Part shown: positions 5,933 to 50,875 of the stretch, piece by piece | How positions within the stretch are numbered: position 1 is the first letter of the stretch | How the letters are laid out: every line of letters begins with the position of its first letter | Source: an uncultured Clostridia bacterium | Lineage (GTDB): Bacteria > UBA6262 > WVXT01 | NCBI GenBank assembly: GCA_964403285.1 | Contig: CAYOFG010000002.1 | Location: 21,104 to 85,103 of the forward strand | Reading direction: 5' to 3' | DNA length: 64,000 bases | Translations under genes and position numbers: made by a program | Notes under the pieces: model-generated | What the model was told of the DNA's origin: nothing | The model's input: the letters and a program-made list of their open reading frames with translations, nothing else | Database searches by the model: none

Positions 5933-6835
5933 GTGAAAAAAATTCTTATTCTTTCTATTTTTCTGGTTCTGGTTCTGGCAAATGGTTTATGGGCAAAAGG
6001 AGCAGGGACATCCAGCGCGATTGTGCTCCAGCAGCCGATAGGCGCAAGAGCCTCGGGGATGGCAGAGGCTTATACTGCGGTGGGGGGAGAAATATGTGTC
6101 CTCCATTATAATCCAGCGAGCTTGATTTCTCTTCCTGGTCGAGAGGCTGCCTTCAGCTATCAGCGAGGCCTAGCCGATGATAGTTTTATGAGTCTTCTTT
6201 ATGGCCAGCCAACTTCTGTGGGAGTCTTCGCAGGGGCTTTCTCCTACTACACAGCGGGAGACATTGACCTGATCGACCTTGACGGAAATGAGTGGACGGC
6301 AAAGGCAGAGCAGGATTTTGTAATACTGGCTGGCTTTGCCCGCAAGTTTGTGGAGAATTTACCGATGGGCATAAACCTGAAGATAGTCTCCTCAAGACTC
6401 GTAGAAGTCAAGACGGGTACGGCTTTTGCAATAGATCTGGGAGGACTTTACTACACACCAATAGAAGGTCTGGCGGGAGGATTGGCGATTCGAAATTTGG
6501 GGACAACGCTTAAATTCCTCGATGAAAGTGATTCTCTTCCTTTGACAATTTCCGTTGGGGCTGCTTTTCAGAAGCATTTTGGCAGCCAGAAAATTTTACT
6601 GAGCGCAGATTTCCCTTTTTTGGTTTATGAACAGAAAGTTACTCCAGCAGTTGGTTTTGAGTTTGACTGGCGAGAGATGGTTCAGGGAAGAATTGGTTAT
6701 AAATTCAACATTGATGATACTGGACTTGCTCTGGGTATGGGATTCTCGTATCAGAGCTATTTCATTAACTATGCCTTTGGCCTGGCAGACAGGTTAGAAA
6801 ATGGACACCGGGTAAGTCTGGGCGTAAGATTTTAA
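5933..6835 (+). CDS. FadL-like outer-membrane beta-barrel protein (PorV / PorP-SprF / PorQ-like), partner of the upstream CTD protein
   Basis: GTG start at 5933 lies 5 nt after RBS aaggagg. Signal peptide KKILILSIFLVLVLANGLWA. N-terminal FadL-like motif GARASGMAEAYTAVGG...YNPASL. Ends in aromatic-rich beta-strands (…VSLGVRF). The 5891 ORF-track start would run through the upstream hairpins. Confidence 0.6.
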   Translation: MKKILILSIFLVLVLANGLWAKGAGTSSAIVLQQPIGARASGMAEAYTAVGGEICVLHYNPASLISLPGREAAFSYQRGLADDSFMSLLYGQPTSVGVFAGAFSYYTAGDIDLIDLDGNEWTAKAEQDFVILAGFARKFVENLPMGINLKIVSSRLVEVKTGTAFAIDLGGLYYTPIEGLAGGLAIRNLGTTLKFLDESDSLPLTISVGAAFQKHFGSQKILLSADFPFLVYEQKVTPAVGFEFDWREMVQGRIGYKFNIDDTGLALGMGFSYQSYFINYAFGLADRLENGHRVSLGVRF

Positions 6836-12357: not shown

Positions 12358-12488
12358 CAAAAAGTATCCTGTCTCCTTTCTTGACAAGAGAAAGCGTGAA
12401 AAAAAGTAGCCTGTCCCCTTTTTTGGTGGGTATTGTTGATGGTTCGTCAACAAGAGACGAGTCAGAACAATGGGAACAAATAAGCAGA

Positions 12489-26648: not shown

Positions 26649-26698
26649 ATGTCAAAAATGAATCATAAATAACAAATTTACGAAAGGGGTTGGTTGTT

Positions 26699-28147
26699 AT
26701 GATAAAAGAATATGAAGCATTTTTAAAGAAGTTGATGATATCTGCCGATTTGTTAATAATGGCTGTTTCTTTTATCTTGGCTTATTTCCTGCGGGCGAAT
26801 ATCTATTACTTCTATAAACTTGACTTATTCCCTTCAAAAGTGATAATGGGTACAATTTATCCCCTGGATAATTATTTGTGGCTACTGTTAATTATTCTTC
26901 CTGTATGGTATGCCTTGCTTAGTTTTCAAGGGCTTTATGAATCTTTTAGAACTAAGAGACTTACAGTAATAGTCTGGATTATTGTAAAGACAGGGTTTCT
27001 TGCTACTTTAATTACCGGAACTTTAATTTTTGTTCTTAAGCTTACCTATATTAGTAGAATCTTTATGTTTTTCTTTTCCGGCGTAGCTGTTAGCCTTTTA
27101 AGTTTAGAAAAGGCAATGCTAATTCAGAGCTTTAAGCACGCTCGCCCAGGAGAGGATAGTTATAAACACTTGTTGGTTGTGGGAACTGGAAAAAGAGCTG
27201 AAAAGTTTGTTCAGATGGTTAAACAACATCCCGAATGGGGTATAAAAATAGTTGGCATTGTAGATGATGAACCAGATAAAATAGGTGAGGAGGTCTCAGA
27301 CATCAAGGTCATTGGGCTATTAAAGGATGTTCCCGATATCCTCCATGAGAAAATAGTTGATGAAGTTGTATTCATTGTCCCCCGGTTATGGCTGAGCCGT
27401 ATTGAACAAAGTATATTAAGTTGTGAGAGAGAGGGGATAAAAGTATCTGTTGCCGTAGATCTATTTAATTTCAAAATTGGAAAGTTACAAGCAACGGACT
27501 TAGGAGGCATTCCTCTTATGCGCCTGGAGACAACCCCTGGTTCGCCGTGGGAGTTGTTTATAAAAAGGAGCCTTGATATCGTTGTCTCTTTGGTGGGATT
27601 AGTTCTTTTGGCGCCACTTCTCCTATTGATAGCAGTGGTTATCAAGTTGAATTCTCCTGGGTCACTATTTTTTAAGCAAGAACGAAACGGAATGAATGGG
27701 AGAAAATTTGGCTTGCTAAAATTTAGAAGTATGGTGGTTGGTGCCGAGGAGATGCAAGAAGATCTTCTTGCTTTAAACGAAATGGATGGTCCCGTTTTTA
27801 AGATTAAAGACGACCCACGAATGACAAAAATTGGCAAGTTCTTGCGTAAGACCAGTCTGGATGAGTTACCTCAATTAATCAATGTTTTGAAAGGCGATAT
27901 GAGCCTTGTCGGTCCTCGCCCACCCATCCCGGGAGAAGTCACTAACTACGAGACATGGCAAAGAAGAAGACTGAGTATGAGACCTGGCATAACTTGTTTT
28001 TGGCAAATTAGTGGGAGAAGTGAAATTGGTTTCGAAGAGTGGATGAAACTCGACTTGGAATATATTGATAATTGGTCCCTGGGGTTAGATTTCAAAATCC
28101 TGCTTAACACAATACCCGTTGTCCTCTTCGGGACGGGAGCAAGGTGA
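26699..28147 (+). CDS. undecaprenyl-phosphate sugar phosphotransferase (WbaP / bacterial sugar transferase, priming enzyme)
   Basis: Four or five N-terminal TM helices and a C-terminal catalytic domain (SLDIVVSLVGLVLLAPLLLLIAVVIKL…RNGMNGRKFGLLKFRSM…DELPQLINVLKGDMSLVGPRP). ATG at 26699 lies 9 nt after RBS aaagggg. Confidence 0.85.
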   Translation: MIKEYEAFLKKLMISADLLIMAVSFILAYFLRANIYYFYKLDLFPSKVIMGTIYPLDNYLWLLLIILPVWYALLSFQGLYESFRTKRLTVIVWIIVKTGFLATLITGTLIFVLKLTYISRIFMFFFSGVAVSLLSLEKAMLIQSFKHARPGEDSYKHLLVVGTGKRAEKFVQMVKQHPEWGIKIVGIVDDEPDKIGEEVSDIKVIGLLKDVPDILHEKIVDEVVFIVPRLWLSRIEQSILSCEREGIKVSVAVDLFNFKIGKLQATDLGGIPLMRLETTPGSPWELFIKRSLDIVVSLVGLVLLAPLLLLIAVVIKLNSPGSLFFKQERNGMNGRKFGLLKFRSMVVGAEEMQEDLLALNEMDGPVFKIKDDPRMTKIGKFLRKTSLDELPQLINVLKGDMSLVGPRPPIPGEVTNYETWQRRRLSMRPGITCFWQISGRSEIGFEEWMKLDLEYIDNWSLGLDFKILLNTIPVVLFGTGAR

Positions 28148-28279: not shown

Positions 28280-29812
28280 ATGAGTGTTTCTAAAAATTTC
28301 TTCAAGTATTGCTTAGTATTTTCTTTAGTCCTGATAATTCCATTATGTATTCCAACTTTGGCGCAAGCAACCATCTATTATGTAGCACAAGATGGCAGCG
28401 ATAGTAATCCTGGAACGGAAACAGAGCCTTGGGCAAGTGTTGATAAAGCGGCAGATACAATGAAAGCTGGCGATACCGTTTATGTTAAACAAGGAACTTA
28501 TAGCGGATTTCAGGTATCCAGAAGCGGAACTGCTGGCAATTACATATCATATCTTGCCTACCCAGGAGCTACTCCAAAAATTGGGCAGATTTATTTTGGA
28601 GAAGGAGCAAGTTATAATAAATTTCACGGGTTTGAAATCACGTATCCCTCCGGAGGAGGGGTGCAAATGAACAATAATAATGACCATAACATGATATCAA
28701 ATTGCCACATTCATCATTGTAACCCAAGTGGAAGTTGTGGAGTGGATATAAGTGGTGGCAGTGATTTTAACATAATAGAAGATTGTATTATTCATGACGT
28801 CTACTATGCTGCTCACACGAGCGGAAGCACCAACAGAGGAAATGTCTTTCGCAGAAACATATGTTACAATATTTCTGATGATGGTTTTAATTTCTCTCCT
28901 TCTACCAAAGATACTCAGGTCATTGATAATGTTATTTATGACGTAGACTGGGATGGAAGTGGGGGAGCAGATGGTATCCACCTTTTCGAAGATGGGAGTG
29001 CAATTGTAAGGGGAAATTTAGTTTATCATGACCGTGCCGCGAGGGGCGGTGTCTTTTGGATTAACGGTGGAAGCAATCACATTATTGAAAATAACACGTT
29101 TGTCGGTCTTCCTGGTTTTACCACTGATTATGGCGGAATAATCTGGATTGAGGTAAATTCGAATGTTACTCTCAAGAATAATATCGGTTACTCAAGTAAC
29201 GGCTCAATAGGTGTGGTTACGGGGATAAATTCTTCTACGAATGATGATTACAATGACTGGTACAATTCTGTTAATAAATCGATGTGCGTGCGATACGGAG
29301 GGGAATGGAAATCTGTTTCTGAATATCAGAAGGAAGATGGTAGAGGACTCCATTCTATTTCCCTGAACCCAGAATTTGTAAATCCTGTAAGTGGTGAAAG
29401 TGGCGATTTTCACTTAAAGCCCGGGTCTCCTTGCGAAGGTACTGGCGAGAATGGGGCAGATATGGGAGCTTACGGCGTGGCAATACCTGACTCCAGTAAA
29501 GACGAGGGAAAGGCGGAGATCAAAGTCCTCAATCGCCCCAATCCCTTTCGTGCCGGCAAGGAAGCGACTCTAATACAATATGAACTCAGTCAACCTTCCA
29601 ATGTTATAATTACAATTTACAACCTCCTGGGTGAAGAAGTATGGCGTAAAAGTTATGAAGCGGGAGAAAACGGTGGCAGGGAAGATAACATCGTTCCCTG
29701 GGATGGAAAGAACGCCTCGGGAGAAGTGGTAGGAAATGGAGGCTATGTCTGCCGCATCTGGGTGGAAAAAGAAAATAGGTATGTGGTAAGGAAGATTGCT
29801 GTTGCCAAATAG
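28280..29812 (+). CDS. secreted right-handed parallel beta-helix protein (DUF1565/pectate-lyase-like fold) with C-terminal FlgD-Ig/T9SS-like sorting domain
   Basis: ATG at 28280 lies 7 nt after RBS aaggagg. Signal peptide MSVSKNFFKYCLVFSLVLIIPLCIPTLAQA. DUF1565-type start TIYYVAQDGSDSNPGTETEPW..ADTMKAGDTVYVKQGTY. Repeated N/H-rich beta-helix rungs. C-terminal NRPNPFRAGKEATLIQYEL…ITIYNLLGEEVW…WDGKNASGEVVGNGGYVCRIWV…RKIAVAK. Confidence 0.75.
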   Translation: MSVSKNFFKYCLVFSLVLIIPLCIPTLAQATIYYVAQDGSDSNPGTETEPWASVDKAADTMKAGDTVYVKQGTYSGFQVSRSGTAGNYISYLAYPGATPKIGQIYFGEGASYNKFHGFEITYPSGGGVQMNNNNDHNMISNCHIHHCNPSGSCGVDISGGSDFNIIEDCIIHDVYYAAHTSGSTNRGNVFRRNICYNISDDGFNFSPSTKDTQVIDNVIYDVDWDGSGGADGIHLFEDGSAIVRGNLVYHDRAARGGVFWINGGSNHIIENNTFVGLPGFTTDYGGIIWIEVNSNVTLKNNIGYSSNGSIGVVTGINSSTNDDYNDWYNSVNKSMCVRYGGEWKSVSEYQKEDGRGLHSISLNPEFVNPVSGESGDFHLKPGSPCEGTGENGADMGAYGVAIPDSSKDEGKAEIKVLNRPNPFRAGKEATLIQYELSQPSNVIITIYNLLGEEVWRKSYEAGENGGREDNIVPWDGKNASGEVVGNGGYVCRIWVEKENRYVVRKIAVAK

Positions 29813-31649
29813 AAAGCAGGCGAAGGTGGGAGAAAAGAGAGTTTTTAAAATATTCTGTATCTGGTTGTTAATTTTTGGGTTGCAGTGGCAATTTGTCAGG
29901 GTAGATAATTACTGCGGGATGCCCGATGACTATTTGCAATACGCGGTAAACGAAGTAGTAGTAACCGGCAGTGTCTATTATGTAGAAAAAGGTGGCAGTA
30001 ACAGTTGGGACGGTTCTCTTGAGCATCCCTGGCAGACCATTCAAAAAGCCGCCGATACTATGGTTGCTGGGGATACTGTCTACATTAAGGAAGGAGTTTA
30101 TACTGAAAGAGTCGTGGCTCAACAATCAGGCTCTCCTGAAAAATTTGTAACCTACATGGCATATCCCGGACATAAATCAGTTATAGACGCAGGCGGAACT
30201 GGAACGGCATTCAGTATCGTCGGGAAAAGTTACATAAAGATAGATAGTCTCGAGATAAAAAACGCTGGAGGCTGGGGAATACTTGTGGAAGATTCTACGA
30301 ACATTGAAATAAGAAATGTAAAAGTTTCTTACAGTAATTGGGAAAACATACAAATCAGAGGTGATTCCAGTCAGGTTCTTCTGGAAAACTGTGACGTCAG
30401 TCATAGCCAAAATTATTCTGGCATAGATATATATCAATATAATGGCCGTCCGCATCATGTGACAGTAAGGAACTGTACTGCCCATCATAATGAGCAATTT
30501 GCTGGCATAGGCAGTGAACAAGCAGATAATTTAATAATTGATTCAAATGTCTGTTATAACAATCGACTGGGTGTAGATATCGGAAGCGGAGACAAGAACA
30601 TTATTAGAAACAATACTGTTTACGACTGCGAAACTGGCATTGCTTTAAGCTCCAATGAAGATTCTGAGGTTTATGAAAATACTATTTACAATATTAAAAA
30701 TGAAGCAATTTATAGTTATTGCTTCAGTGTACACGGCGAAGCCCATACCAGAAATAAATGGTATAGAAATATAGTCTATAACTGTGGTTTTGGAATTTAC
30801 GAAAGCAAATGGGATAGGCAGCCAATTGAGGGGATTTCGTCAGACCATGAATTCTATAACAACCTTTTCTATGATATAGGAACCCACGGTACTTATCGCG
30901 TACCATTTTATTTCCAAGGTTCAACAGGCATTAAATTTCGTGACAACACTATCTATATGAATCCAAACTATGATGCAGTCCAATTCCTTCAAGGCGCCAT
31001 TAATTCAAAAATCGAAAATAACATTATAAGCATAAGTGGGGATAAATCTCCAATCATAATGGATAGTTCATCCAGTAGTGGTGCAGTAGTTGATTATAAC
31101 TGTTACCACAATAGGGCTGGTACTGTAGGTTCGGGGGAACATTCGATTGCTAAAGACCCAAAATTTGTTGATGTCCCGGGTCACGATTTCCATCTCCAAA
31201 AGACCTCCCCCTGCGTAGATGTTGGTGATCCTGCTACCGGTGCTGATTTCGACCTTGATGGTAGGCAGAGTCCCCAAGATGGTGATGGAGACGGAGACCC
31301 AATAGTTGATATGGGAGCTTATGAGTATCCAGGACCCAGTCCCCCTATCGAGGGAGTAGAAGTCCTCAATCGACCTAATCCGTTCCGTGCGGGTAAAGAA
31401 GAAACTCAGATAGAATATAATCTCAAGCAACTTTCCAATGTAACAATTACAATTTACGACCTCTTGGGTCAACAGGTCTGGCGTAAAAGTTATAGGGCAG
31501 GGGAAAACGGTGGCAGGGAAGTGAATAGCGTTCCCTGGGATGGGAAGAACGCCTCGGGAGAAGTGGTAGGAAATGGAAGCTATGTCTGCCGCATCTGGGT
31601 GGAAAAAGAAAATAGGTATGTGGTAAGGAAGATTGCTGTTGCTAAATAG
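29802..31649 (+). CDS. secreted beta-helix protein with same C-terminal sorting domain; N-terminal signal peptide and first mature residues homologous to the FadL-like barrel genes
   Basis: Probable TTG start at 29802, 7 nt after an aaggaag RBS embedded in the last codons of the upstream gene. Signal peptide NRKQAKVGEKRVFKIFCIWLLIFGLQWQFVRV, then DNYCGMPDDYLQY matching the barrel N-termini. Beta-helix core, a DGDGDGD calcium-like loop, then the sorting domain. Exact start codon is uncertain (29796/29802/29826). Confidence 0.65.
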   Translation: MPNRKQAKVGEKRVFKIFCIWLLIFGLQWQFVRVDNYCGMPDDYLQYAVNEVVVTGSVYYVEKGGSNSWDGSLEHPWQTIQKAADTMVAGDTVYIKEGVYTERVVAQQSGSPEKFVTYMAYPGHKSVIDAGGTGTAFSIVGKSYIKIDSLEIKNAGGWGILVEDSTNIEIRNVKVSYSNWENIQIRGDSSQVLLENCDVSHSQNYSGIDIYQYNGRPHHVTVRNCTAHHNEQFAGIGSEQADNLIIDSNVCYNNRLGVDIGSGDKNIIRNNTVYDCETGIALSSNEDSEVYENTIYNIKNEAIYSYCFSVHGEAHTRNKWYRNIVYNCGFGIYESKWDRQPIEGISSDHEFYNNLFYDIGTHGTYRVPFYFQGSTGIKFRDNTIYMNPNYDAVQFLQGAINSKIENNIISISGDKSPIIMDSSSSSGAVVDYNCYHNRAGTVGSGEHSIAKDPKFVDVPGHDFHLQKTSPCVDVGDPATGADFDLDGRQSPQDGDGDGDPIVDMGAYEYPGPSPPIEGVEVLNRPNPFRAGKEETQIEYNLKQLSNVTITIYDLLGQQVWRKSYRAGENGGREVNSVPWDGKNASGEVVGNGSYVCRIWVEKENRYVVRKIAVAK

Positions 31650-32928
31650 AAAGCAGGGGAAGGTGAGAGAAAAAACGGTTTTTGGAATATTTATTATTTG
31701 TTTATTAATTCTTGGGCTGAATTGGCAATTTGTTACAGCAGAGAATTACTACGGAATGCCTAACGACTATTTGCAGTACGGGGCAGGAGCGAGGTCTTTA
31801 GCCATGGGAGGAGCGTATGTAGCCCTGGCAGATGAGGCAAGTGGACCTTATTGGAATCCTGCAGGCTTAACACAGGTTGAGGAATACCAGTTCCTTTCTA
31901 TGTATGCTCCCTTCTTTGAACAGACTAGTTATAACTTCCTTTCTTATGTTAATCCACTGGGACGGCTGGGGAACGTGGCTATTTCCGATGTTTTTCTCTA
32001 TTCGGGAGGGTATGAAGAAGTTGATAAAGACGGAAACGTTCTGGGCGCGAATCAGTCAATATTCAATAATGCCATAATTATTTCTTATGCAAACAGAATT
32101 TATAGACACTTGTCCCTGGGAGCAAATTTGAAACTGATTCATGAGCGAGTGATGAAATATTCAGGGAACAGCCAGGGAATAGATTTGGGGATACTTTGTA
32201 AGCCTTTGGATGAACTGAGTATTGGCTTAGTAGTGCAAAATGTACTCCAGCCAAAGGTGACTCTGATAGATGAGCCTAACGTGTATGGTACAAATGTGAA
32301 AGGTGGTGTGGCATTGAAAACATACTATAACCGCCTAATACTGACCGCAGATATCAATAAGCTCGTTGACGAGAAAGCATATTTCTGTACAGGAGTAGAG
32401 TTTTCTCCCTGGGAGAAGGTTACGTCCTCTTCTTTGAAAAGAATAGATCTAAGGGCAGGAATCAACCATTTGCAATCATTTACCTGTGGAATAGGATTAA
32501 AGATAAATTTTTTCTCTCTGGATTACGCATTTAATATTCATAGGATAGGAAATCTCCACAAATTTGGCCTTACTTTTCGCTGGGGAAGTATCTATAAAGC
32601 GAGAGCCAGACCTGTTCTGGGGTCAGGAAACACTTATTGGGTTGGACCATCGGGGGAGCCCCTGAAATTTCTTATCGAAATGCCATCAATTACTATAGAA
32701 AAATGGACTCTGACGATAAAAGATGAAAAGGAGAAAATTGTGACGGCCTTCGAAACGACGAGGCATAGACCGAAAATTATCAGGTGGAATCTACGTGACC
32801 AGAAAGGAAAGTTGGTAAAGAACGGATATTATTACTACGAATTTAGCGTTATTTATAAAGATGGTAAAAAATGGATTGACAATGGAGAGATAAAGCTCCA
32901 GTATAAAGAAACATTGCCAAATCAATAA
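31639..32928 (+). CDS. FadL-like outer-membrane beta-barrel (PorV/PorP-SprF-like) with additional C-terminal FlgD-Ig-like domain
   Basis: TTG start lies 7 nt after an aaggaag RBS inside the upstream CTD codons. Signal peptide ending VTA|EN. YGMPNDYLQYGAGARSLAMGGAYVALADEASGPYWNPAGLT. Barrel ends in FGLTFRWGS. An extra ~100 aa (…IEKWTLTIKDEKEKIVTAF…IIRWNLRDQKGKLVKNGYYYYEFSVIY…) has an FlgD-Ig-like motif pattern. Confidence 0.6.
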   Translation: MLNRKQGKVREKTVFGIFIICLLILGLNWQFVTAENYYGMPNDYLQYGAGARSLAMGGAYVALADEASGPYWNPAGLTQVEEYQFLSMYAPFFEQTSYNFLSYVNPLGRLGNVAISDVFLYSGGYEEVDKDGNVLGANQSIFNNAIIISYANRIYRHLSLGANLKLIHERVMKYSGNSQGIDLGILCKPLDELSIGLVVQNVLQPKVTLIDEPNVYGTNVKGGVALKTYYNRLILTADINKLVDEKAYFCTGVEFSPWEKVTSSSLKRIDLRAGINHLQSFTCGIGLKINFFSLDYAFNIHRIGNLHKFGLTFRWGSIYKARARPVLGSGNTYWVGPSGEPLKFLIEMPSITIEKWTLTIKDEKEKIVTAFETTRHRPKIIRWNLRDQKGKLVKNGYYYYEFSVIYKDGKKWIDNGEIKLQYKETLPNQ

Positions 32929-32976
32929 TCCTGCCCTATAATCCCTGCCTTAAAACCCCTTTAAAATTTACAAAAA

Positions 32977-33016
32977 CTTAACAAAAACTTAACATTTTCT
33001 TAACATATACTTAACA
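32977..33016 (+). repeat. four direct copies of CTTAACA at exact 11-bp spacing (starts 32977, 32988, 32999, 33010)
   Basis: aaaaCTTAACAaaaaCTTAACAttttCTTAACAtataCTTAACAtc lies in an AT-rich intergenic region about 240 bp upstream of the 33253 beta-helix gene. One-helical-turn phasing suggests a protein-binding array. Confidence 0.6.
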
Positions 33017-33252
33017 TCATTGTGTTATACTTAGATTGTAGTAATCATAAGCTGTTCTGAAAACTGAATATTTTATGGCTCGATAAAGGCAAACCATTCG
33101 AAAGGGTGGGACGTAAAACCGCGGGTCCCCGATATATCAGGGACAGCCGGGTTACCGAAGCCAGCAAAGTAATAGATCCCTGGTTTTTCGAATGGAAAGC
33201 CAGGGTTTTCTATTTTATTAGCCATAAACGACTCTTCAAGGAAGGTAGTGCT

Positions 33253-34851
33253 ATGAGGGTTTCCAAAAAATTATTTAAATATCGTTTAGTGTTTTCCGTA
33301 GCCTTAATAGGTTTATTATGTATTTCAACCCGGGGACAAGCAACGACATATTACGTTGGGGAAAATGGCAGTGATACTAATCCTGGGACAGAAGCAAAGC
33401 CCTGGCTGACTGTTGATAAAGCTGCCGATACAATGGTTGCTGGCGATACTGTCTACATTAAACAAGGAACTTATAGCGGATTTATGGTATCCAGAAGCGG
33501 AACTGCCGATAATTACATATCATACCTTGCCTACCCGGGAGATACTCCCATAATTGGCCAAATATATTTTGGGAATGGAGCAAGCTATAACAAATTCTAT
33601 GGTTTTGAGATTACCTATCCCTCTGGCGGAGGGGTACAGATGAATCATAACAACGATTATAACATAGTATCAAATTGCCACATTCACCATTGTAATCCAG
33701 GTGGAAGTGTTGGAGTTGACTTAAGTGGTGGTAGTGATTTTAACATAGTAGAAGATTGTATTATTCATGATTGCTACTATGCTATTCACACAAGTGAAAG
33801 TACCAATAGAGGAAATATTTTCCGCAGAAATGTATGTTATAGGATTTCTGATGACGGTTTTAATTTTTCTCCTTCTACCGAAGATACACAGGTTATCAAT
33901 AACGTTATTTATGATGTAGGCTGGGACGGAAGCGGGGGAGCGGATGGTATTCATCTTTACGATGATGGGACCGCAATTGTAAGGGGAAATCTGGTTTACC
34001 TTGATAGTGATTCAACGGGAGGCGTCTTTTGGCTCCATGGGGGGACAAATCACGTTGTTGAAAATAACACATTTGTTGGTCTTCCTGGTTTTTCTACTGC
34101 TTATGGAGCGATAATCTGGCTGGAAATGGCTTCCAACGTTATTCTCAAAAATAATATTGGTTATTCAAGTGATGCTTCAATAGGTGTGGTCATGGGAATA
34201 GATTCTTCTACTAATGATGATTACAACGACTGGTATAATGCTTCTGATCCGTCAATGTGTGTGCGGTATGGAGGGGAATGGAAATCTGTTTCTGATTATC
34301 AGAGCCAGAATGTAAGGGGTTTGCATTGTATCTCTCAAGACCCAAGATTTATAGATTTTGCAAACCATGATTTTCACCTGCGGCCCGATTCTCCATGCAT
34401 AGGCACTGGTGAGAATGGAGTTGATATGGGAGCTTACGGAGCGGGAGAATCTGTTCCTGTTTACGAAGATCCGGAAGTTCCTGTTTACGAAGATCCGACA
34501 AAACCCGACTCTTCAGCCGAGAATCCACCAGAAACTGAATCCCAGAGCGATGGTGTGGATGGAGTCCACAATCAACCCAATCCTTTCCGCGCGGGTAGAG
34601 AGGAAACTCTTATAAAATATGGTTTAGAGCAATCTTCTAATGTAACAATTACTATTTACGACCTCCTCGGTCAAGAGGTATGGCAGGAGAATTATCGTTC
34701 AGGAGAAAACGGTGGTAGAGAAACGAATAGCGTGTCCTGGGATGGAAGAAACCTCTCGGGGAAAGTGGTGGCAAATGGAGGTTATTTCTGTCGCATCTGG
34801 GTGGAGAAAGAGAGAAGGCATATGTTGAGGAAGATTGCTGTCGCCAAATAA
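33253..34851 (+). CDS. secreted right-handed beta-helix protein (DUF1565-like), paralogue of 28280..29812, with C-terminal FlgD-Ig/T9SS-like sorting domain
   Basis: ATG at 33253 is preceded by RBS aaggaagg. Signal peptide MRVSKKLFKYRLVFSVALIGLLCISTRGQA. High identity to the 28280 gene throughout the beta-helix. The linker has PVYEDPEVPVYEDP repeats. C-terminal sorting domain ends RKIAVAK. The 33106 ORF-track start adds an unsupported 49-aa leader. Confidence 0.75.
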   Translation: MRVSKKLFKYRLVFSVALIGLLCISTRGQATTYYVGENGSDTNPGTEAKPWLTVDKAADTMVAGDTVYIKQGTYSGFMVSRSGTADNYISYLAYPGDTPIIGQIYFGNGASYNKFYGFEITYPSGGGVQMNHNNDYNIVSNCHIHHCNPGGSVGVDLSGGSDFNIVEDCIIHDCYYAIHTSESTNRGNIFRRNVCYRISDDGFNFSPSTEDTQVINNVIYDVGWDGSGGADGIHLYDDGTAIVRGNLVYLDSDSTGGVFWLHGGTNHVVENNTFVGLPGFSTAYGAIIWLEMASNVILKNNIGYSSDASIGVVMGIDSSTNDDYNDWYNASDPSMCVRYGGEWKSVSDYQSQNVRGLHCISQDPRFIDFANHDFHLRPDSPCIGTGENGVDMGAYGAGESVPVYEDPEVPVYEDPTKPDSSAENPPETESQSDGVDGVHNQPNPFRAGREETLIKYGLEQSSNVTITIYDLLGQEVWQENYRSGENGGRETNSVSWDGRNLSGKVVANGGYFCRIWVEKERRHMLRKIAVAK

Positions 34852-34865
34852 ATAGGTGTAGATAT

Positions 34866-35819
34866 ATGAAAAAGAGATGGCTGAAATCATCGGGAGTAGC
34901 AGACTTTAGTCTGCGTTTTCTTGTTTTGGTGTTAATTTTTGGTATGCATTGGCAACTTGCCCGGGCAGATAATTACTATGGAATGGCTAATGACTACTTG
35001 CAGTACGGAGCAGGAGCAAGGTCTTTAGCATTAGGGGGAGCATATGTGGCACTGGCAAATGAGGCGAGCGCGCCTTATTGGAACCCTGCAGGCTTGACAC
35101 AAATTAATAAAAACGAGTTCCTTGCCATGTATGCTCCCTTCTTTGAACAGACAAGTTATAACTTTGTTTCCTACGTTCATCCCCTTGGAAGACTGGGGAC
35201 TTTGGCTATTTCCGATGTTCTCTTCCATTCCGCAGGGTATGAAGAAGTTGACAATACGGGAAATGTAATTGGCAGGAATAAATCAATATTCAAGAATGCA
35301 GTAATCATCTCTTACGCGAATAAGATTCATAAACGTCTCTCTCTGGGAGCAAGTTTGAAACTGGTTCATGAGCGAGTGATGAGATATTCAGGGAATGGCC
35401 AGGGAATAGATTTGGGGATACTTTATCAGCCGTTAGACGCGCTGAATATCGGATTAGCCGTGCAAAATGTCTTGCAGCCGGAGATCACCCTAAGATACGA
35501 CGCCGATGTGTATGATATGAATTTTAAGGCCGGTGTGGCGCTGAAGACATTTTCTAACCACCTCATCCTGACTGCGGATGTCAATAAGCTCGTTGACGAG
35601 AAGGCGTACTACTGTGCCGGTTTGGAAGTTTCTCCCTGGGAGAAAATATCTTCGCCTTATTTGAAAAGAGTGGATTTGAGGGCAGGATTCAACCACTTGC
35701 AATCATTTACCTGTGGAATAGGATTGAAGATAAACTTTTTCACCGTGGATTATGCCTTTAGTCCTCATGACATGGGAAATCTACACAAATTTGCCCTTAC
35801 TTTTAGCTGGGGAAAATAG
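34866..35819 (+). CDS. FadL-like outer-membrane beta-barrel (PorV/PorP-SprF-like), partner of the upstream CTD protein
   Basis: Signal peptide MKKRWLKSSGVADFSLRFLVLVLIFGMHWQLARA|DN. DNYYGMANDYLQYGAGARSLALGGAYVALANEASAPYWNPAGLT. About 85% similar to the 31639 barrel without the extra domain. Confidence 0.6.
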   Translation: MKKRWLKSSGVADFSLRFLVLVLIFGMHWQLARADNYYGMANDYLQYGAGARSLALGGAYVALANEASAPYWNPAGLTQINKNEFLAMYAPFFEQTSYNFVSYVHPLGRLGTLAISDVLFHSAGYEEVDNTGNVIGRNKSIFKNAVIISYANKIHKRLSLGASLKLVHERVMRYSGNGQGIDLGILYQPLDALNIGLAVQNVLQPEITLRYDADVYDMNFKAGVALKTFSNHLILTADVNKLVDEKAYYCAGLEVSPWEKISSPYLKRVDLRAGFNHLQSFTCGIGLKINFFTVDYAFSPHDMGNLHKFALTFSWGK

Positions 35820-36133: not shown

Positions 36134-36210
36134 GCCCTCGTAGCTCAGATGGATAGAGCAGCGGTTTCCTAAACCGTTTGTCGGGAGTTCGAATCCCCCC
36201 GGGGGCACCA
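36134..36210 (+). tRNA. tRNA-Arg (anticodon CCU)
   Basis: Manual fold: acceptor stem GCCCUCG/CGGGGGC with one G-U pair; D-arm GCUC-AGAUGGAUA-GAGC; anticodon stem GCGGU/ACCGU with loop UUCCUAA; variable loop UUGUC; T-arm GGGAG-UUCGAAU-CCCCC. Encoded CCA at the 3' end. Confidence 0.85.
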
Positions 36211-36668: not shown

Positions 36669-36884
36669 ATGCCTACAATCGCAGTAAGGCTCTCAAAGGG
36701 CGAGTCTAAAGCTTTAAATTCCGTTGTTAGGCTTACTGAAAGGACGAAAACATACATTTTAAAGGAAGCTCTTCACAGCTACCTTAAGGAGTATGTTGAC
36801 TATCAGATTGCACTTGATCGCCTGAATGATAAAGATGATGCTATTATCTCTACCAAAGAAATGAGGAAGTTAATTGGCATATAA
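36669..36884 (+). CDS. type II antitoxin, ribbon-helix-helix (CopG/RelB-like)
   Basis: MPTIAVRLSKGESKALNSVV… beta-strand-helix-helix N-terminus. Stop codon overlaps the toxin start. ATG at 36669 lies 9 nt after RBS aaaggtgg. Confidence 0.55.
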   Translation: MPTIAVRLSKGESKALNSVVRLTERTKTYILKEALHSYLKEYVDYQIALDRLNDKDDAIISTKEMRKLIGI

Positions 36885-37125
36885 GGTTATCTGGAAAAAA
36901 TCGGTTTCGAAAGACTTTAAAGAGATAACAGAAAAGCTACGAGGTAAATTGTTTGCTAAAATTGAGAAAGAACTATCTAAGCAACCTACACAAGGTGAAA
37001 AGCTACGGGGCAAGTTTGCAGGCCTTTATAAGCGTAGAATAGGGGATTATAGAGTAATTTATACAATAACTCCTCAAGGTGTTCTTGTCTTAAGAGTTCG
37101 ACATAGAAAAAATGCTTACAAATGA
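36874..37125 (+). CDS. type II toxin, RelE/ParE family
   Basis: 83 aa, basic. C-terminal …GDYRVIYTITPQGVLVLRVRHRKNAY matches the RelE/ParE core. Overlaps the antitoxin by 11 nt. Confidence 0.65.
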   Translation: MAYKVIWKKSVSKDFKEITEKLRGKLFAKIEKELSKQPTQGEKLRGKFAGLYKRRIGDYRVIYTITPQGVLVLRVRHRKNAYK

Positions 37126-37832: not shown

Positions 37833-38498
37833 ATGCCTCGTAAATGGGTAAAAGAAGAACTTAAAAAGGACCGTTTAGCAACCTGGGTGGAAAGGTCAGT
37901 TATCTGGGTCAATGAGAATAAGGAGAACGCTATAATTGGCGGAATAGTTATCCTTGCTATAGCAATTTTTATTCCCTTTTCCTTGTCTCGTCGCGCCAAG
38001 ATGAATGAACAAGCGTCTATCCTTTTGGCGAGAGGACAACAGGAACTTTTTGATAATCAGCTTGACAATGCTATCTCTTTTTATGACCAAGCATTAAGCC
38101 ACTCTGGCTCAAAGGCTACCCCCTTGGTCCTTCTCTATAAAGGTAATACTCTCTATAAAATGGCGAAGTATAGCGAAGCTACCTCTATTTATATGAGCTA
38201 TCTGGATAAATACGAAACCAGAAAGTTCACCCCTGAAGTCCTGATAAGCCTGGGCAATAGTCTGGAACAGGAAGGAAAATCCGATGAGGCTAAAGAAATT
38301 TACCAGAAATTTCTGGACAAGTTTCCCCAGCATTATCTCTTACCAGGGATTTACCAGGGCCTGGGGAGGTGCTATGAGAAACTGGGACAGAGAGATGAGG
38401 CAATCAAGATATACCAACAGATTTCCCAGTTCTACTCTGGCAGTATCTGGCAAACTATGGCTGAGGCGAAAATAAAAGCGTTGTCGCCTACGCCTTGA
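37833..38498 (+). CDS. membrane-anchored tetratricopeptide-repeat protein
   Basis: One N-terminal TM helix (AIIGGIVILAIAIFIPF) followed by TPR-like repeats (AISFYDQAL…, LYKMAKYSEATSIYMSYLDKY…, AKEIYQKFLDKFPQH…). Confidence 0.6.
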   Translation: MPRKWVKEELKKDRLATWVERSVIWVNENKENAIIGGIVILAIAIFIPFSLSRRAKMNEQASILLARGQQELFDNQLDNAISFYDQALSHSGSKATPLVLLYKGNTLYKMAKYSEATSIYMSYLDKYETRKFTPEVLISLGNSLEQEGKSDEAKEIYQKFLDKFPQHYLLPGIYQGLGRCYEKLGQRDEAIKIYQQISQFYSGSIWQTMAEAKIKALSPTP

Positions 38499-38678: not shown

Positions 38679-39860
38679 TTGAAACGGACAATTCTACTGG
38701 TTCTTCTTGTATCTTCCATCCTGCACATATCTCCTGGAGTTGGTCTGGCAGGCGTGAGAGTGGGAGAAGAAGTCAGGATAAGGATAGTTCCGGTAAGCAA
38801 TGGAGATGAAAGTTACGTCTATCAACGGACGAGATTGTTGATGGAAGGAGTATTAGCAGAAGGAATTACCATCGGGATAAAATTGCAATCGAGGGGTTTC
38901 TGGGGTGTGGATACTTCCACAGTAACCATTGAGGGATTAACTCGCAGGAATATGTTGCCCTGGATTGAAAATGCCTACGTAAGAGTTGATGAATTTTTTG
39001 GCCTTCCTTTGTACCTGTCTTTGGGAAGACAAACTCTCCAATACGGAGATGGGTTATTGGTTGATGATAACGCGTCAGGTTATGATGCCATTAAACTATC
39101 CGCCATTTTGCCCTGGGCGGTTGACTGCGAGCTAATGATGCTAAAACCAACAGAGGCCATTGGCGTTAGCCCTGATAACTGGAAAGAGAAGAACGCTTAT
39201 GGAGCGTTTATTAAGAGACGGTGGAAAGGGATTACTCCCCAAATTTCTGGTTTCTGGCAGAGAGATCGAACTATCGGAGTAGATAAGAACTTTGTGGGAT
39301 GCCAGGTGAGCGGACAACTGGGAAAGGAAGTCGATTATCGGGGTGGCGTAATCATTCAATCGGGAAAGGGGGGAGGAAGAGATTATAAAGGTTTAGCCTA
39401 CATATTAGGTGGAACCTTTGCAGCTGATACGAGATTTGGTAAAGGCATCGCTGTTTGTGAGTATCTCGTGGGTAGCGGAGAATTGGCACCGATTACAGGA
39501 AAAGATGAAAATTTCTCTTCCGACTACGCTCACCTTTCAGAAGAAGAGTACGGTGAATACTATATGGAAAATAGAAACGTGGTGAGACAGGGAGATACCG
39601 ATTATGCAATTACTAACTTGAAGATATTTAAATTGGGATTGTCTATATTTCCTCTCCCTGAATTGAAGACCGGATTTAACTATTTAATCTACAATTCTCC
39701 TAGTCCCAAAGGTAACATCGGAGATGAAGTGGACATTTCCGTTAAGCACTATTACTCAGAGAATCTTTCATTTCGCCTGGTGTATGGTATATTTATGCCG
39801 GGAAAGCTTGCTGAGGACGGTGCAAATAAAGTTATGGGAGAGGTGATGGTGAAATTCTAA
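38679..39860 (+). CDS. hypothetical secreted/outer-membrane protein
   Basis: Signal peptide MKRTILLVLLVSSILHISPGVGLA. Alternating beta-strand-like segments; C-terminal aromatic residue (…VMVKF). Confidence 0.45.
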   Translation: MKRTILLVLLVSSILHISPGVGLAGVRVGEEVRIRIVPVSNGDESYVYQRTRLLMEGVLAEGITIGIKLQSRGFWGVDTSTVTIEGLTRRNMLPWIENAYVRVDEFFGLPLYLSLGRQTLQYGDGLLVDDNASGYDAIKLSAILPWAVDCELMMLKPTEAIGVSPDNWKEKNAYGAFIKRRWKGITPQISGFWQRDRTIGVDKNFVGCQVSGQLGKEVDYRGGVIIQSGKGGGRDYKGLAYILGGTFAADTRFGKGIAVCEYLVGSGELAPITGKDENFSSDYAHLSEEEYGEYYMENRNVVRQGDTDYAITNLKIFKLGLSIFPLPELKTGFNYLIYNSPSPKGNIGDEVDISVKHYYSENLSFRLVYGIFMPGKLAEDGANKVMGEVMVKF

Positions 39861-48010: not shown

Positions 48011-50875
48011 TTAGAACGTTGGTCCCAGAGAAAAATAGAATTTTCCTGTGAATTTATCCGTCCGCCAGCCATAATCTAACCTGAGTGTAAAGGGAAACAT
48101 TTGCATGAGGAAAGTGTTTATTCTCAACCCTATTCCAATTGTGTTTTTTATATCTGAAATTCCCTTTATCTCCTCAGGTTCGTTCCAGGCTGCTCCGGAA
48201 TCGGTAAAAAGAGCAAGTTGCAGGTTCTTTAGATATATCTCCGGCCAGAGAAGTCTGAATCTCCAATTTATTTCCGGAAAGAGCATAAACCTCCACTCAG
48301 CGTTAACCAGGGCTAACCTGCTGCCAGAGAAAGCACCCTTAGAAAGGCCGCGTAACTTACTCTCTCCCCCGAGGGAGGACTCTTCTCTATCTTTTCCCTG
48401 GCTCAACATTCCCAGAAATCTAAATGCTAAAATATTGCGTTCAGATAATTTGAAATATTTCCTGGCATCGAGTATATACTTTGTATAATCGAAATCTCCA
48501 TCAAGCGCTTTAAAGGCTTGATAGACCGAGAAATTGGCCCGGCTACCGCTCATTATGTCCAGAATCTTCCCCTCCGTTGTATCCCTCACCAGAGAAAGAG
48601 CAACGCCGTTCTCCCTGGTTCTGATATTATCTCCATTCCACTCTCGCTTAGATTCAGTAATTAGTCCCAGGTCTACCCGCCGGAAACGGTCAAAAGGATA
48701 ACTGACCACCATCTCTTCGGCAAATTCACTGGTGCGGACTGTATTATTATCGCTCTCAGATTCGCGTCTCATCTTTCCATAAGCAAAAAAACCTAAACTG
48801 GGTCGCCACCTTTGATAAATATAGCCTACTCCATAGTTTAACCAATCGTATTCGGAAGCGTACTCCACTACAAGAGTCATCATGTGGTTTCCCAGGAGAT
48901 CGCTTGCCTGCCAGTATCCAGCCGTATACAGACCTTCTGTTGTGGAGTAAAAAAGCAAAGGAAAGATGAGATCCGTAGAGGCTTTAAATCTATAGGGATG
49001 AATCCTGGTCACGGGAGAAGGATAGGGGCTTATGATTGGCTCCGTGGGCTCTTGAGGCAATTGGGCTATCGCTATTCCTTCTTTCCCTCCCTTCAATTTT
49101 TTTACAAACACCTCTTCTTGAGGTAATTCTCCACAGTAAATGTTCATCTCTCCATTCCGATAAGAAACGAAAAGTAGATGTCTTCCGTCGGGAGATATTT
49201 CCGGAGTAAAGACTCCTACTTTGACATTGGTCAATTGGAAAATGTCTAATTCCAGATTCTCATCCTGAATTTCTCTTTCGAGGCCCCTCACGTCCATGCG
49301 GTAAATGTTATAAATCCCTGCATAATCGCCAATGTAGATAATACTATCACCATCGGGTGCCCAGGAAGGGTCCATCTCATCACTGGGAGTAGAAGTTAAT
49401 TGAGTAATGGCCAGAGTTTCCACATCCAAAAGAAAGAGATCTTTCTGTTTCTCTCTTTCCGAGACATAGACAATCTTCTTATCGTCAGGGGAAAAAACAG
49501 GATAATCGTCATCGCACTCGTCGCTGGTTAATCTCTCCAGGTTCTTGCCATTGGCATCCACTAAGTAGAGGTCGTTTATACCTCCTTCCATTCCCACAAA
49601 AACAATCTTATCCCCTTGGTGGGAAAAACAAGGAGATTTTAGAACTTTCAGAGGCAGACGAAGTTTCTTCAGTTTATTTTTTTTGAGATTAATTATGTAA
49701 AGATAATCCTTCTCTTTTTTCTCTCCTGCAAAAACAATCTTTTCTCCATCCGGAGACCAGGAGAGAGCGTGTCCTTCAGAGTGGATAACATCCAGACTTC
49801 TCCCGATGCGCGATTTTAGAATCGATTCCTGACTTGTTCCATCAACATTCATCACAAACAGGTCGCCATATCCATTGCGGGTAGAAATAAAAGTTATTCT
49901 CTTTCCGTCGGGTGAGAAGACTGGATTAGTATTAAACTCGGCATTTTCTGTAAGTTTCTTTCCATAAGTTTCGGCTTCTTCCTTTCCTTCTGCTTCTACT
50001 GTATATTTTTCTTTCATATATTTCTGCCATTTTGTGTCAAAGCTACCTAAGTCAGTATCTATTGTGCGCATAAAAACCCCGTTTATGTCCAGACTCTCCC
50101 GCAGATTCTTAATCAATTTAGGAACTTTATCTTCTCCATACTCTTCTGCCAAAAAACTGATTGCACTGTGCCCCTCCTGGTAAGCTAAGGAGATCTGGTG
50201 CATTTTCAAATGATTGAAACTGTGTAACTTACCCAGGGGAATTATCATATCGGAAATAACAACATCTCTCAAGAGCATATGGTCATAAGTTTCCCATTCT
50301 TCTCTACCCTCATACTCTGCCAATCCTTCAATTATCCACAAGGGATAGAAGACAAATCTCATCAGACTGGCCGATTTCCAGAATCCACCATACCAGATAT
50401 TGAACATTGCAATATGGGTGAACTCATGAGTAATCACATGCTCCAGCTCCTTATCCGAACCTGTCACGGGAATTACAAACCTGTTCTTATAGGGCTCAGA
50501 GAATCCACCGACGCCCTCACCAGTATCAGCAATGTTATTCTGCTCAAAGTGGTTATGTGTCATGTATAAGAAGAAAGGTGTTTTCTTTGCTATACTGATA
50601 TTTAAGTCATCGGTAACTTTTTCGTAAGCTTTTTCCAGCATCTTGCTTATTTTAGGGACTACATGTCTCGCTTCAGGATAATGGTGAATTTGGAAATGTT
50701 CGGTTTCTGCAATATGCCAGGTCTGTTGATCAACGATTACCTTGTTCTTACCGAAGGAGACGTCTGAATAGGATAGAGGATTTCTCAAAAAAAGCAGGCA
50801 GAACGAAAGGCAAGCAAAGAGAAGAAATTTTTTTTTCAGGTTATTCTTCATTTTCTGAATTGTCCAATTTTTCAC
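48011..50875 (-). CDS. multidomain outer-membrane protein: peptidase_MA-like zinc metalloprotease domain + TolB-like PD40 beta-propeller repeats + C-terminal Omp85 (bacterial surface antigen) beta-barrel
   Basis: Signal peptide. HEFTHIAM (HExxH) … EGLAEYEG (Peptidase_MA_2-type third ligand). Multiple PD40-like repeats (PVFSPDGKRITFISTRNGYGDLFVMN, YPVFSPDDKKIVYVS, DPSWAPDGDSIIYIG, TPEISPDGRHLLFVSYRNGEMNIY). C-terminal …GGESKLRGL…LALFTDSGAAWNE…RLDYGW…FSLGPTF ending in Phe. Confidence 0.7.
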   Translation of the reverse strand: MKNWTIQKMKNNLKKKFLLFACLSFCLLFLRNPLSYSDVSFGKNKVIVDQQTWHIAETEHFQIHHYPEARHVVPKISKMLEKAYEKVTDDLNISIAKKTPFFLYMTHNHFEQNNIADTGEGVGGFSEPYKNRFVIPVTGSDKELEHVITHEFTHIAMFNIWYGGFWKSASLMRFVFYPLWIIEGLAEYEGREEWETYDHMLLRDVVISDMIIPLGKLHSFNHLKMHQISLAYQEGHSAISFLAEEYGEDKVPKLIKNLRESLDINGVFMRTIDTDLGSFDTKWQKYMKEKYTVEAEGKEEAETYGKKLTENAEFNTNPVFSPDGKRITFISTRNGYGDLFVMNVDGTSQESILKSRIGRSLDVIHSEGHALSWSPDGEKIVFAGEKKEKDYLYIINLKKNKLKKLRLPLKVLKSPCFSHQGDKIVFVGMEGGINDLYLVDANGKNLERLTSDECDDDYPVFSPDDKKIVYVSEREKQKDLFLLDVETLAITQLTSTPSDEMDPSWAPDGDSIIYIGDYAGIYNIYRMDVRGLEREIQDENLELDIFQLTNVKVGVFTPEISPDGRHLLFVSYRNGEMNIYCGELPQEEVFVKKLKGGKEGIAIAQLPQEPTEPIISPYPSPVTRIHPYRFKASTDLIFPLLFYSTTEGLYTAGYWQASDLLGNHMMTLVVEYASEYDWLNYGVGYIYQRWRPSLGFFAYGKMRRESESDNNTVRTSEFAEEMVVSYPFDRFRRVDLGLITESKREWNGDNIRTRENGVALSLVRDTTEGKILDIMSGSRANFSVYQAFKALDGDFDYTKYILDARKYFKLSERNILAFRFLGMLSQGKDREESSLGGESKLRGLSKGAFSGSRLALVNAEWRFMLFPEINWRFRLLWPEIYLKNLQLALFTDSGAAWNEPEEIKGISDIKNTIGIGLRINTFLMQMFPFTLRLDYGWRTDKFTGKFYFSLGPTF

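Follow-up and report, generated by a model that had tools for sequence, protein, structure and literature searches.

The DNA considered here, which we call the window, is a stretch of 64,000 nt from an uncultured Clostridia bacterium (assembly GCA_964403285.1, contig CAYOFG010000002.1, positions 21,104 to 85,103 of the forward strand). It carries four genes for secreted proteins and three genes for outer-membrane beta-barrels of the PorV/PorQ family, set out as paralogous cassettes in and right after a locus for exopolysaccharide (EPS) biosynthesis and export. The secreted proteins, which we call cargos, end in a tail that resembles the C-terminal domain (CTD) that cargo of type IX secretion systems (T9SS) carries, and in each cassette the gene of the presumed cognate barrel follows that of the cargo. 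By analogy with known systems we believe that the barrels are cargo-specific CTD-binding anchors or shuttles that would work with a translocon encoded elsewhere, and we put the probability of this reading at roughly 0.6.

A first-pass annotation, made from the letters alone, had proposed four secreted proteins that share a C-terminal tail of ~90 aa, and this held for every one of them. All four have Sec-type signal peptides, from which we predict Sec export of each. All four also end in the motif that the annotation had quoted (PNPFRAGKE...ITIYDLLGQ.VW...WDGKNASGEVVGNGGYVCRIWV...RKIAVAK), which is present in cargo 0 in a diverged version, 33-37% identical to the tails of the other three. Cargo 0 (2403-5837, 1144 aa) is made up of BNR_4-like propeller repeats (74.8 bits), then five repeats of ~110 aa and then the diverged CTD at ~5586-5834, where a hidden Markov model (HMM) that we iterated from the window tails matches residues 1062-1144. 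The other three cargos contain a right-handed beta-helix and are called bh1 to bh3. For bh1 (28280-29812), the open reading frame (ORF) opens at TTG 28256, and counted from the ATG the protein has 510 aa with its CTD at ~29525-29809. The ORF of bh2 opens at TTG 29796 (617 aa), but its likely start is GTG 29826 (607 aa), which gives a gene at 29826-31649 with the CTD at ~31362-31646. The last, bh3 (33253-34851), has 532 aa and a CTD at ~34564-34848.

The passengers of these three are predicted to be beta-helices like those of polysaccharide lyase family 9 (PL9). The Pel9A-like model PF22842 (cut-off 25.2 bits) is passed by bh1 with 34.0 bits and by bh3 with 35.6, while bh2 stays below it at 21.9. 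In bh1 the Beta_helix model PF13229 gives 56.2 bits, and in bh2 it gives 79.9 bits next to 69.1 for NosD. The cargo had earlier been labelled DUF1565, and this label should be dropped, as the scores of 12.8-19.4 bits are all below the cut-off of 20.3; the labels that the family scores support are Pel9A-like and Beta_helix.

For the tails, we compared the scores with the curated cut-offs of three models: PF13860 (FlgD_ig, 27 bits), TIGR04183 (23 bits) and PF18962 (27 bits). With PF13860, bh2 (30.4 bits) and bh3 (29.0) pass, and bh1 (23.2) and cargo 0 (13.7) do not. The TIGR04183 scores are 18.0 for bh1, 28.1 for bh2, 22.7 for bh3 and 23.2 for cargo 0, and those with PF18962 are 15.8 for bh2, 15.6 for bh3 and 19.1 for cargo 0, with bh1 not listed. 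The suggested match of the tails to FlgD-Ig or T9SS models is thus found near the cut-offs of PF13860 and TIGR04183. Further matches of the tails are to the CTD end of the PorU, PorZ and T9SS-dependent M6-like protease models of NCBIfam. A sequence search of the PDB with the tail alone gave marginal matches (C5a peptidase and FlgD, E 0.16-1.3, with FlgD at only 0.2-1.3), so a structural comparison was needed.

We modelled bh3 and barrel 3 with AlphaFold2 (AF2) and compared the models with known structures using Foldseek. The bh3 model (pLDDT 84) has a right-handed beta-helix, a disordered linker at residues 398-435 and a seven-strand sandwich at residues 438-531. It matches PorZ (5m11) over 106 columns with 24% identity and an E-value of 2.4e-5, which we take to be the sandwich of bh3 aligned with the CTD of PorZ. 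As modelled, the tail of bh3 is an Ig-like beta-sandwich at the extreme C-terminus, after the passenger, and it resembles solved CTDs. For bh3 the best Foldseek matches are Pel9A (1ru4) and the PL9 rhamnogalacturonan lyase 5olr, with only 18-19% identity. These are followed by PL6 lyases and, lower down, by the AlgE epimerases (the mannuronan C5-epimerases AlgE4 and AlgE6) and the matrix lyase RbmB of V. cholerae.

The barrels all pass the cut-off of 90 bits of NF033709, a subfamily model for PorV/PorQ. Barrel 1 (5891-6835, 314 aa) scores 145.1 bits and is the nearest of the three to canonical PorV, with 69 bits for the PorV model NF033710 and 25.4 bits for the PorV family PF19572, the latter being below its cut-off of 27. 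Barrel 2 (118.5 bits) is at 31663-32928 and has 421 aa, or 431 aa if it is read from TTG 31633, where the ORF opens; its homologue P0065 begins MREKTVF. It bears an extra C-terminal domain of ~110 aa (~32584-32925) that is FlgD-Ig-like and is also typical of homologues of ~435 aa. In four homologous barrels (L003, L004, L006 and L008) the C-terminal extension matches the tail HMM. We infer that the Ig-like domain of barrel 2 is periplasmic because the number of strands is even. Barrel 3 (34866-35819, 317 aa, 126.6 bits) has no such extension. An N-terminal motif ending in WNPAGL had been ascribed to all three barrels; we found it in barrels 2 and 3 (GARSLAMGGAYVA...YWNPAGL), and in barrel 1 it has diverged to GARASGMAEAYTA...HYNPASL.

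The AF2 model of barrel 3 (pLDDT 87.8) has ~14 strands. Its top matches are the F. johnsoniae PorV chains 8gl6_F and 6h3i_F, which come from structures of the T9SS translocon (substrate-bound translocon), with TMq of 0.73 and 0.71 and E-values of 4e-12 and 4e-11. FadL, TodX and TbuX are significant fold matches as well, but with TMq of 0.55-0.59. Judged by the model, barrel 3 is a 14-strand barrel of the FadL fold whose nearest solved structure is PorV. The FadL family model PF03349 (cut-off 29.7 bits) gives 11.9 bits for barrel 2, 20.5 bits for barrel 3 and no listed match for barrel 1, and matches to UPF0164 are weak. For PorP_SprF (PF11751), no match was found in the three window barrels at E <= 0.1. 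The possibility that the barrels are generic FadL proteins, which had been named as a test of the idea, therefore finds little support in the family scores or in the structural comparison.

All seven ORFs are on the plus strand, and the barrel genes begin 53, 13 and 14 nt after the stop codons of cargo 0, bh2 and bh3, so the claim that three of the cargos are directly followed by barrel genes stands. The tails of bh1, bh2 and bh3 are 71-84% identical to one another despite the divergence of their passengers, where the identity is 77% between bh1 and bh3 but just 34-37% between bh2 and each of these. Between barrels 2 and 3 the identity is 73%, and barrel 1 shares 28-29% with them. Tail and barrel thus appear to diverge in parallel, with both the tail of cargo 0 and barrel 1 standing apart.

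There is also a direct repeat of 244 bp, in which the DNA at 29703-29946 is 87% identical to that at 31540-31783. The first copy contains the end of the bh1 tail, the stop codon, the spacer and the start of bh2, and the second contains the end of the bh2 tail, the stop, the spacer and the start of barrel 2. The similarity ends just past ..NY(Y/C)GMP(N/D)DYLQY. This means that bh2 begins with a leader and first mature residues (..NYCGMPDDYLQY) taken from a barrel gene. With a signal peptide that derives from a barrel, bh2 is a chimera and the remnant of a barrel that was lost by recombination. The same chimera is found in three metagenomic homologues (P0300, P0306 and P0353). We read the repeat as evidence for recombination between cassettes, and, given the barrel-leader fossil in bh2, the ancestral arrangement was probably one barrel per cargo.

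Outside the window, more than 500 homologues of the barrels were found in metagenomes. We scanned one genome per GTDB species and obtained 80 loci carrying a homologous barrel, with ~12-21 kb of sequence for each. These come from Elusimicrobiota, Poribacteria, FCPU426, Goldbacteria, Firestonebacteria, Zixibacteria, KSB1, Calditrichota, Ignavibacteria, Marinimicrobia, Bacteroidota and unclassified metagenome-assembled genomes. The gene order of the window (Bac_transf, bh1, bh2, barrel, [riboswitch], bh3, barrel) is retained in relatives whose barrels share as little as 64% identity (L001, L086), and is partly decayed in L083 (GCA_012974965.1).

We used the tail HMM to count how often CTD genes and barrel genes occur together in the related loci, where 67 of its 72 matches are C-terminal. 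Among 84 barrels, 37 have a tail-ending ORF on the same strand within 400 nt upstream, and six have one downstream. In a non-overlapping gene set, the slot directly upstream of a barrel is a CTD gene in 30/70 cases, compared with 24/459 for other genes (odds ratio 13.6, Fisher p 1.3e-15; 80 loci in other GTDB species). The co-occurrence of CTD and barrel elsewhere, which had been put forward as a check, is therefore real. The pair is frequent in Elusimicrobiota, where 13 of 21 barrels have an upstream CTD gene, and also occurs in FCPU426 and Firestonebacteria; in Goldbacteria and Poribacteria the barrel is present and the upstream CTD gene is rare or missing. The upstream cargos are diverse proteins of surface type (Big_1/invasin, CARDB, fn3, NosD+LamG) and many are longer than 1800 aa. 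In Bacteroidota porU lies next to porV, and we therefore suspected that in loci of the Fibrobacteres-Chlorobi-Bacteroidetes (FCB) group the large CTD proteins encoded upstream of the barrels were PorU. This was rejected, as none of the nine proteins scanned has Peptidase_C25 and neither of the two that were also checked with NCBIfam (L049, L078) matches its PorU model. Proteins of this kind are already annotated by the NCBI pipeline as 'PorV/PorQ family protein' or 'T9SS type A sorting domain-containing protein', so family membership in itself is not new.

The third cassette, bh3 and barrel 3, has a regulatory leader that was absent from the first-pass annotation. A full-length aptamer of the c-di-GMP-I-GGC riboswitch (RF03167, model positions 1-80 of 80) is at 33079-33160, with 71.8 bits (Rfam gathering score 59) and an E-value of 4.8e-15, 93 nt upstream of ATG 33253. 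It is preceded by a promoter-like site at 32914-32942 (TTGCCA-17-TATAAT, 11 of 12 consensus matches in a consensus scan only) and followed at 33178-33215 by a terminator-like hairpin of 12 bp with a T tract (folding z-score -4.1), which is likely the expression platform of the riboswitch. A Shine-Dalgarno-like AAGGAAGG then leads to ATG 33253. We ruled out GTG 33106 as the start of bh3 because the riboswitch occupies 33079-33160. The aptamer and the terminator are at the same position in four relatives (L001/L002, L083 and L086). Between the promoter-like site and the riboswitch, at 32960-33015, a (C)TTAACA motif occurs four to five times at a spacing of ~11 nt (aaaacttaacaaaaacttaacattttcttaacatatacttaacatca), and this may be an array for binding a regulator.

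In which direction the switch would act is a weaker point. Minimum-free-energy folding keeps the terminator every time. An antiterminator of 8-9 bp, CGAAGCCAG with CUGGUUUUUCG, appears only if the 3' arm of the terminator is blocked; CGAAGCCAG is the 3' strand of P1 and can then pair with the terminator's 5' arm. From this we infer only weakly that the modelled leader may be a ligand-induced OFF switch, with expression at low ligand.

Riboswitches are also found at other loci. We searched the related loci with a covariance model built from four aptamers and confirmed the matches with Rfam at the gathering threshold, which gave 15 c-di-GMP-I or c-di-GMP-I-GGC aptamers in 13 Elusimicrobiota loci, some of them in tandem (aptamer-bearing loci are L013, L015, L016, L018, L019, L020, L023, L025, L032, L040, L046, L047, L054 and L065). 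The gene just downstream of each is that of the PorV-like barrel, or that of a small CTD protein with the barrel gene next in line. The distance to the barrel gene is ~100 nt (for example L023 5788-5866). L013 has an aptamer in front of its barrel as well, and at 2618-2713 in L014 an aptamer on the minus strand precedes a minus-strand CTD gene. The riboswitch-linked barrels of Elusimicrobiota are fused to TPR repeats. After the barrel-TPR fusion comes, at 7622-9595 in L023 and 7596-9614 in L018, a protein of ~660 aa with FliG_M, FliG_C and TPR repeats (83.6 and 38.6 bits for the two FliG domains, both over the cut-off), and after that a conserved protein of 700-760 aa without a family match.

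A different set of neighbours is seen with barrels that have the Ig extension, the subfamily closest to the window. Here the operon consists of a giant CTD protein (1800-1980 aa), the barrel with its Ig domain, a TPR protein (650-1007 aa) and MotA/ExbB. It spans 498-12896 in L003, which is from the same lineage as the window (79% identity), 209-7105 in L004, 1-10969 in L008 and 4297-16958 in L084. Two ExbD genes follow MotA/ExbB in L003, L004 and L084/85, and a TonB_C protein is recorded in L084/85 only. This gene order points to a motor driven by the proton-motive force and linked to this barrel subfamily. No T9SS genes were seen in the fetched loci whose genes were scanned, where the neighbours are TPR-ExbB-ExbD or FliG-like genes.

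Most of the plus-strand part of the window upstream of bh1 is the EPS locus (36-28147), as judged from family scans. Its products are a Wza-like export fragment, a chain-length determinant and a BY-kinase (these with partial matches to the EPS models named below), Wzy_C, a flippase of the Wzx type, several family 4 glycosyltransferases, an Asn-synthase-like amidotransferase, sugar-nucleotide enzymes and a UDP-glucose dehydrogenase, and it ends with the initiating Bac_transf (26690-28147). Cargo 0 and barrel 1 are embedded in it, and bh1 comes right after it. Parts of the locus (36-2289, 6850-8340 and 12333-14225) give partial matches to the XrtA/PEP-CTERM-type EPS models TIGR03027, TIGR03007 and TIGR03018. 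No exosortase or PEP-CTERM protein was identified in the EPS locus; CTD proteins are embedded there instead.

Downstream of the third cassette there are a tRNA gene (36134-36207, 61.8 bits) and a gene for a ParE-type toxin (36874-37125), then genes for a PHP protein, a TPR protein (37833-38498, plus strand), an Alginate_exp-like porin (38679-39860, plus strand) and a GH57 enzyme. The order of the TPR and porin genes is conserved in relatives, and a PemK toxin is found in relatives at the place equivalent to that of the ParE-type toxin. The minus-strand half of the window is housekeeping (rpsA, ispH, aroA and others). Among these genes, 48011-50875 on the minus strand encodes a protein of 954 aa with an unusual combination of domains: Peptidase_MA_2, PD40/TolB-like beta-propeller repeats and a C-terminal barrel of the Omp85 family. 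The rpsA product is at least 80% identical within its own clade; identities then drop to 55% and next to ~45%, with Eisenbacteria, Vicinamibacteria and Thermodesulfobacteriota. We take Eisenbacteria to be affiliated with the FCB group. The host is a deep-branching diderm bacterium.

In the reading that we favour, each cargo would be exported by Sec and would then cross the outer membrane by way of a translocon whose genes are elsewhere. The tail would dock on the loops of the cargo's own barrel, and the barrel would collect the cargo and hold it at the cell surface, where the enzymes may trim the EPS that the surrounding locus produces, or remodel it. We propose this docking because of the analogy with PorV and type A CTDs (PMC5562754), with PorU-PorV and PorZ-PorQ, and with PorP/SprF and type B cargo. 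The translocon could be a canonical T9SS, or it could be the TPR-ExbB-ExbD-linked apparatus that in the closest relatives is encoded beside barrels of the same subfamily. Display of bh3 would respond to a cyclic-dinucleotide signal: the promoter-like site, the c-di-GMP-I-class riboswitch and the terminator in front of the third cassette would tie it to the second messenger of the choice between biofilm and planktonic life.

Several observations weigh against this reading. No translocon was identified, and the family scans, which covered the window ORFs except several housekeeping ORFs at 53-63 kb, gave no match to a core T9SS family, as the first-pass annotation had also reported. None of the three barrels reaches the equivalog cut-offs for PorV (NF033710, 34-69 bits against 250), PorQ (NF033711, 73-86 against 220) or PorV2 (NF052325, 33-90 against 325). 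The tails meet their curated cut-offs in part, with PF18962 below in every case and TIGR04183 passed by two of the four. The suggested arrangement of one barrel per cargo holds for three cargos; there are four cargos and three barrels, bh1 has no barrel gene directly after it, and bh2 has the fossil barrel leader. In L083 the barrel upstream of the riboswitch (206-1446) is split into pieces of 169 aa and 242 aa, and bh3 is followed by a gap of 1.3 kb and then by a protein of 635 aa with a faint porin match, with no PorV-like barrel. The pairing is not universal, as none of the 19 barrels in Poribacteria has an upstream CTD gene. The OFF-switch reading depends on the one possible antiterminator, and to our knowledge the ligand of the GGC variant has not been established experimentally.

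The most ordinary alternative is that a complete T9SS (SprA/Sov, PorK/L/M/N, PorU) is encoded elsewhere in the genome and that the barrels are extra PorV/PorQ paralogues, so that the mechanism is not new. Both the barrels and the tails belong to T9SS-associated families, the nearest named relatives by rpsA (~45% identity) include Eisenbacteria, and Ignavibacteria, Calditrichota, Zixibacteria, KSB1, Marinimicrobia and Bacteroidota have barrels homologous to these. We nevertheless consider it unlikely. There is no core component among the ORFs scanned in the 64 kb, in characterised systems a single PorV serves the type A CTDs (PMC12618676), the pair occurs in Elusimicrobiota, FCPU426 and Firestonebacteria, which are outside the FCB phyla listed with T9SS genes (PMC11285876), and the neighbours found are TPR-ExbB-ExbD or FliG-like genes and not T9SS genes. 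These neighbours could instead suggest that the cargo reaches the surface through the barrel itself, with or without TPR-ExbB-ExbD-TonB-like partners, and that no SprA-type translocon is involved. The conserved operons of giant CTD protein, barrel+Ig, TPR protein and ExbB (with the two ExbD genes in L003, L004 and L084), the riboswitch-controlled barrel-TPR fusions of Elusimicrobiota with their FliG_M/FliG_C protein, and the lack of T9SS genes in the scanned loci would all fit. However, a 14-strand barrel of the FadL fold with an N-terminal plug region is too narrow for a folded beta-helix or a cargo of 1900 aa, as is generally known from structures of FadL and PorV. In addition, the window cassettes have no adjacent ExbBD and each locus was seen over only ~12-21 kb, so we regard a self-contained route as improbable.

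It is also conceivable that the enzymes never reach the surface and act on nascent polymer in the periplasm like AlgG and AlgL, with the tail as no more than an adaptor that tethers them, from the periplasm, to the barrel and the TPR/AlgE-like export pore. The EPS locus around the genes, and the TPR protein and Alginate_exp-like porin encoded downstream, are in line with this, as are the C5-epimerases AlgE4 and AlgE6 among the fold matches of bh3 and the putatively periplasmic Ig-like domain of barrel 2, which is homologous to the tails. We give this idea little credence, because the tail sequence resembles T9SS export signals, the bh3 model has its PorZ-CTD-like match, the partner cargos in other lineages are adhesin-like giants that are typical of the cell surface, and PorV binds CTDs via extracellular loops (PMC10994853). 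Finally, the genes could be neighbours by coincidence, the barrels being FadL-type transporters of hydrophobic compounds that have nothing to do with the cargos. The weak matches to PF03349 and UPF0164 and the significant fold matches to FadL, TodX and TbuX are what such transporters would give. We rejected this as very improbable, since PF03349 stays below its cut-off, PorV is the better fold match, the junction from tail to barrel was duplicated as one unit, and the adjacency has an odds ratio of 13.6 across phyla.

Our favoured reading, that of cargo-specific anchors or shuttles, has its closest parallel in PorV (LptO) of F. johnsoniae and P. gingivalis (PDB 6H3I, 8GL6), which has the 14-strand FadL fold, is the best structural match to barrel 3, falls in the same NF033709 subfamily model as the window barrels and has partners with a C-terminal beta-sandwich tail. 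Canonical PorV is one general shuttle on the SprA translocon, though, whereas the window has several barrels, each beside one cargo and each under the equivalog cut-offs, without SprA or PorU among the ORFs scanned, and many members of the window barrel family have a C-terminal Ig-like or TPR extension. In the T9SS attachment complex of P. gingivalis, PorU-PorV and PorZ-PorQ are stable one-to-one pairs of a CTD-retaining protein and a PorV/PorQ-family barrel (PMC11285876, PMC12365241). The window resembles them in that its tails match the CTD end of the PorU and PorZ models and bh3 has its PorZ-CTD match, but its partners are polysaccharide-active or adhesin-like, not the sortase PorU or the carrier of anionic lipopolysaccharide, PorZ. 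The comparison with sprB-sprF of F. johnsoniae, drawn in the first-pass annotation, is apt, as cargo with type B CTDs is reported to have a genetic link to cognate PorP/SprF shuttles and the cargo gene adjoins that of its dedicated shuttle or anchor (PMC12618676, PMC9143113). In contrast to PorP/SprF, the window barrels have no PF11751 match, the tail is type A or FlgD-Ig-like and not type B, and the host is outside Bacteroidota. FadL, TodX, TbuX and UPF0164 of Treponema share the fold superfamily, the region of the NPA-type motif near the N-terminus and weak sequence matches; the window barrels are below the PF03349 cut-off and structurally a poorer match to these proteins than to PorV. We know of no link between CTD cargo and FadL proteins. 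The RF03167 aptamer belongs to the c-di-GMP-I (GEMM-I) clan, whose riboswitches include those of surface and matrix genes, and bh3, as a polysaccharide-lyase-like beta-helix enzyme, is similar to RbmB of V. cholerae, which is among its fold matches.

Our searches of the literature found no paper that links a c-di-GMP riboswitch class to PorV-family barrels or T9SS-type cargo, none on tandem cargo-dedicated PorV-family barrels conserved well beyond the FCB phyla, none on PorV-family barrels linked to ExbB/ExbD or FliG-like genes, and nothing on PorV-like proteins outside Bacteroidota, PorV2, or T9SS in Elusimicrobia or Poribacteria. What is described is that type A CTDs all use a single PorV (PMC12618676), and PorV-family barrels that each serve one cargo and stand in tandem copies would depart from this picture. 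T9SS is also described as restricted to Bacteroidota and some relatives in the FCB group, its genes being reported absent from other phyla, and species without T9SS genes are said to have no predicted CTD proteins either (PMC11285876). The recurrence of the cargo-barrel pair in non-FCB phyla departs from this confinement, and the loci of Elusimicrobiota and FCPU426 sit uneasily with it. Further departures are that barrel and cargo genes are repeatedly under c-di-GMP-class riboswitches, and that ExbB/ExbD motor genes are joined to the barrel in close relatives.

A more far-reaching possibility is that the pair of CTD cargo and PorV-like barrel is the core of a display system distinct from canonical T9SS. 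Such a system would be widespread outside Bacteroidota (in Elusimicrobiota, FCPU426, Firestonebacteria and this lineage), switched by c-di-GMP riboswitches, energised via TPR-ExbB-ExbD-TonB-like or FliG-like partners instead of SprA and GldKLMN, and a sibling or precursor of type IX secretion. We offer this tentatively and consider it rather doubtful as a whole. If these genomes have a normal T9SS elsewhere, the finding is reduced to cargo-specific PorV paralogues under riboswitch control, which would be new but modest. If the docking is true, the cassettes would provide a simple two-gene model of how a barrel recognises a CTD, and they would give uncultivated bacteria a direct link from c-di-GMP to the surface display of matrix-remodelling enzymes and giant adhesins. 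It would also bear on the origin of the T9SS shuttle module.

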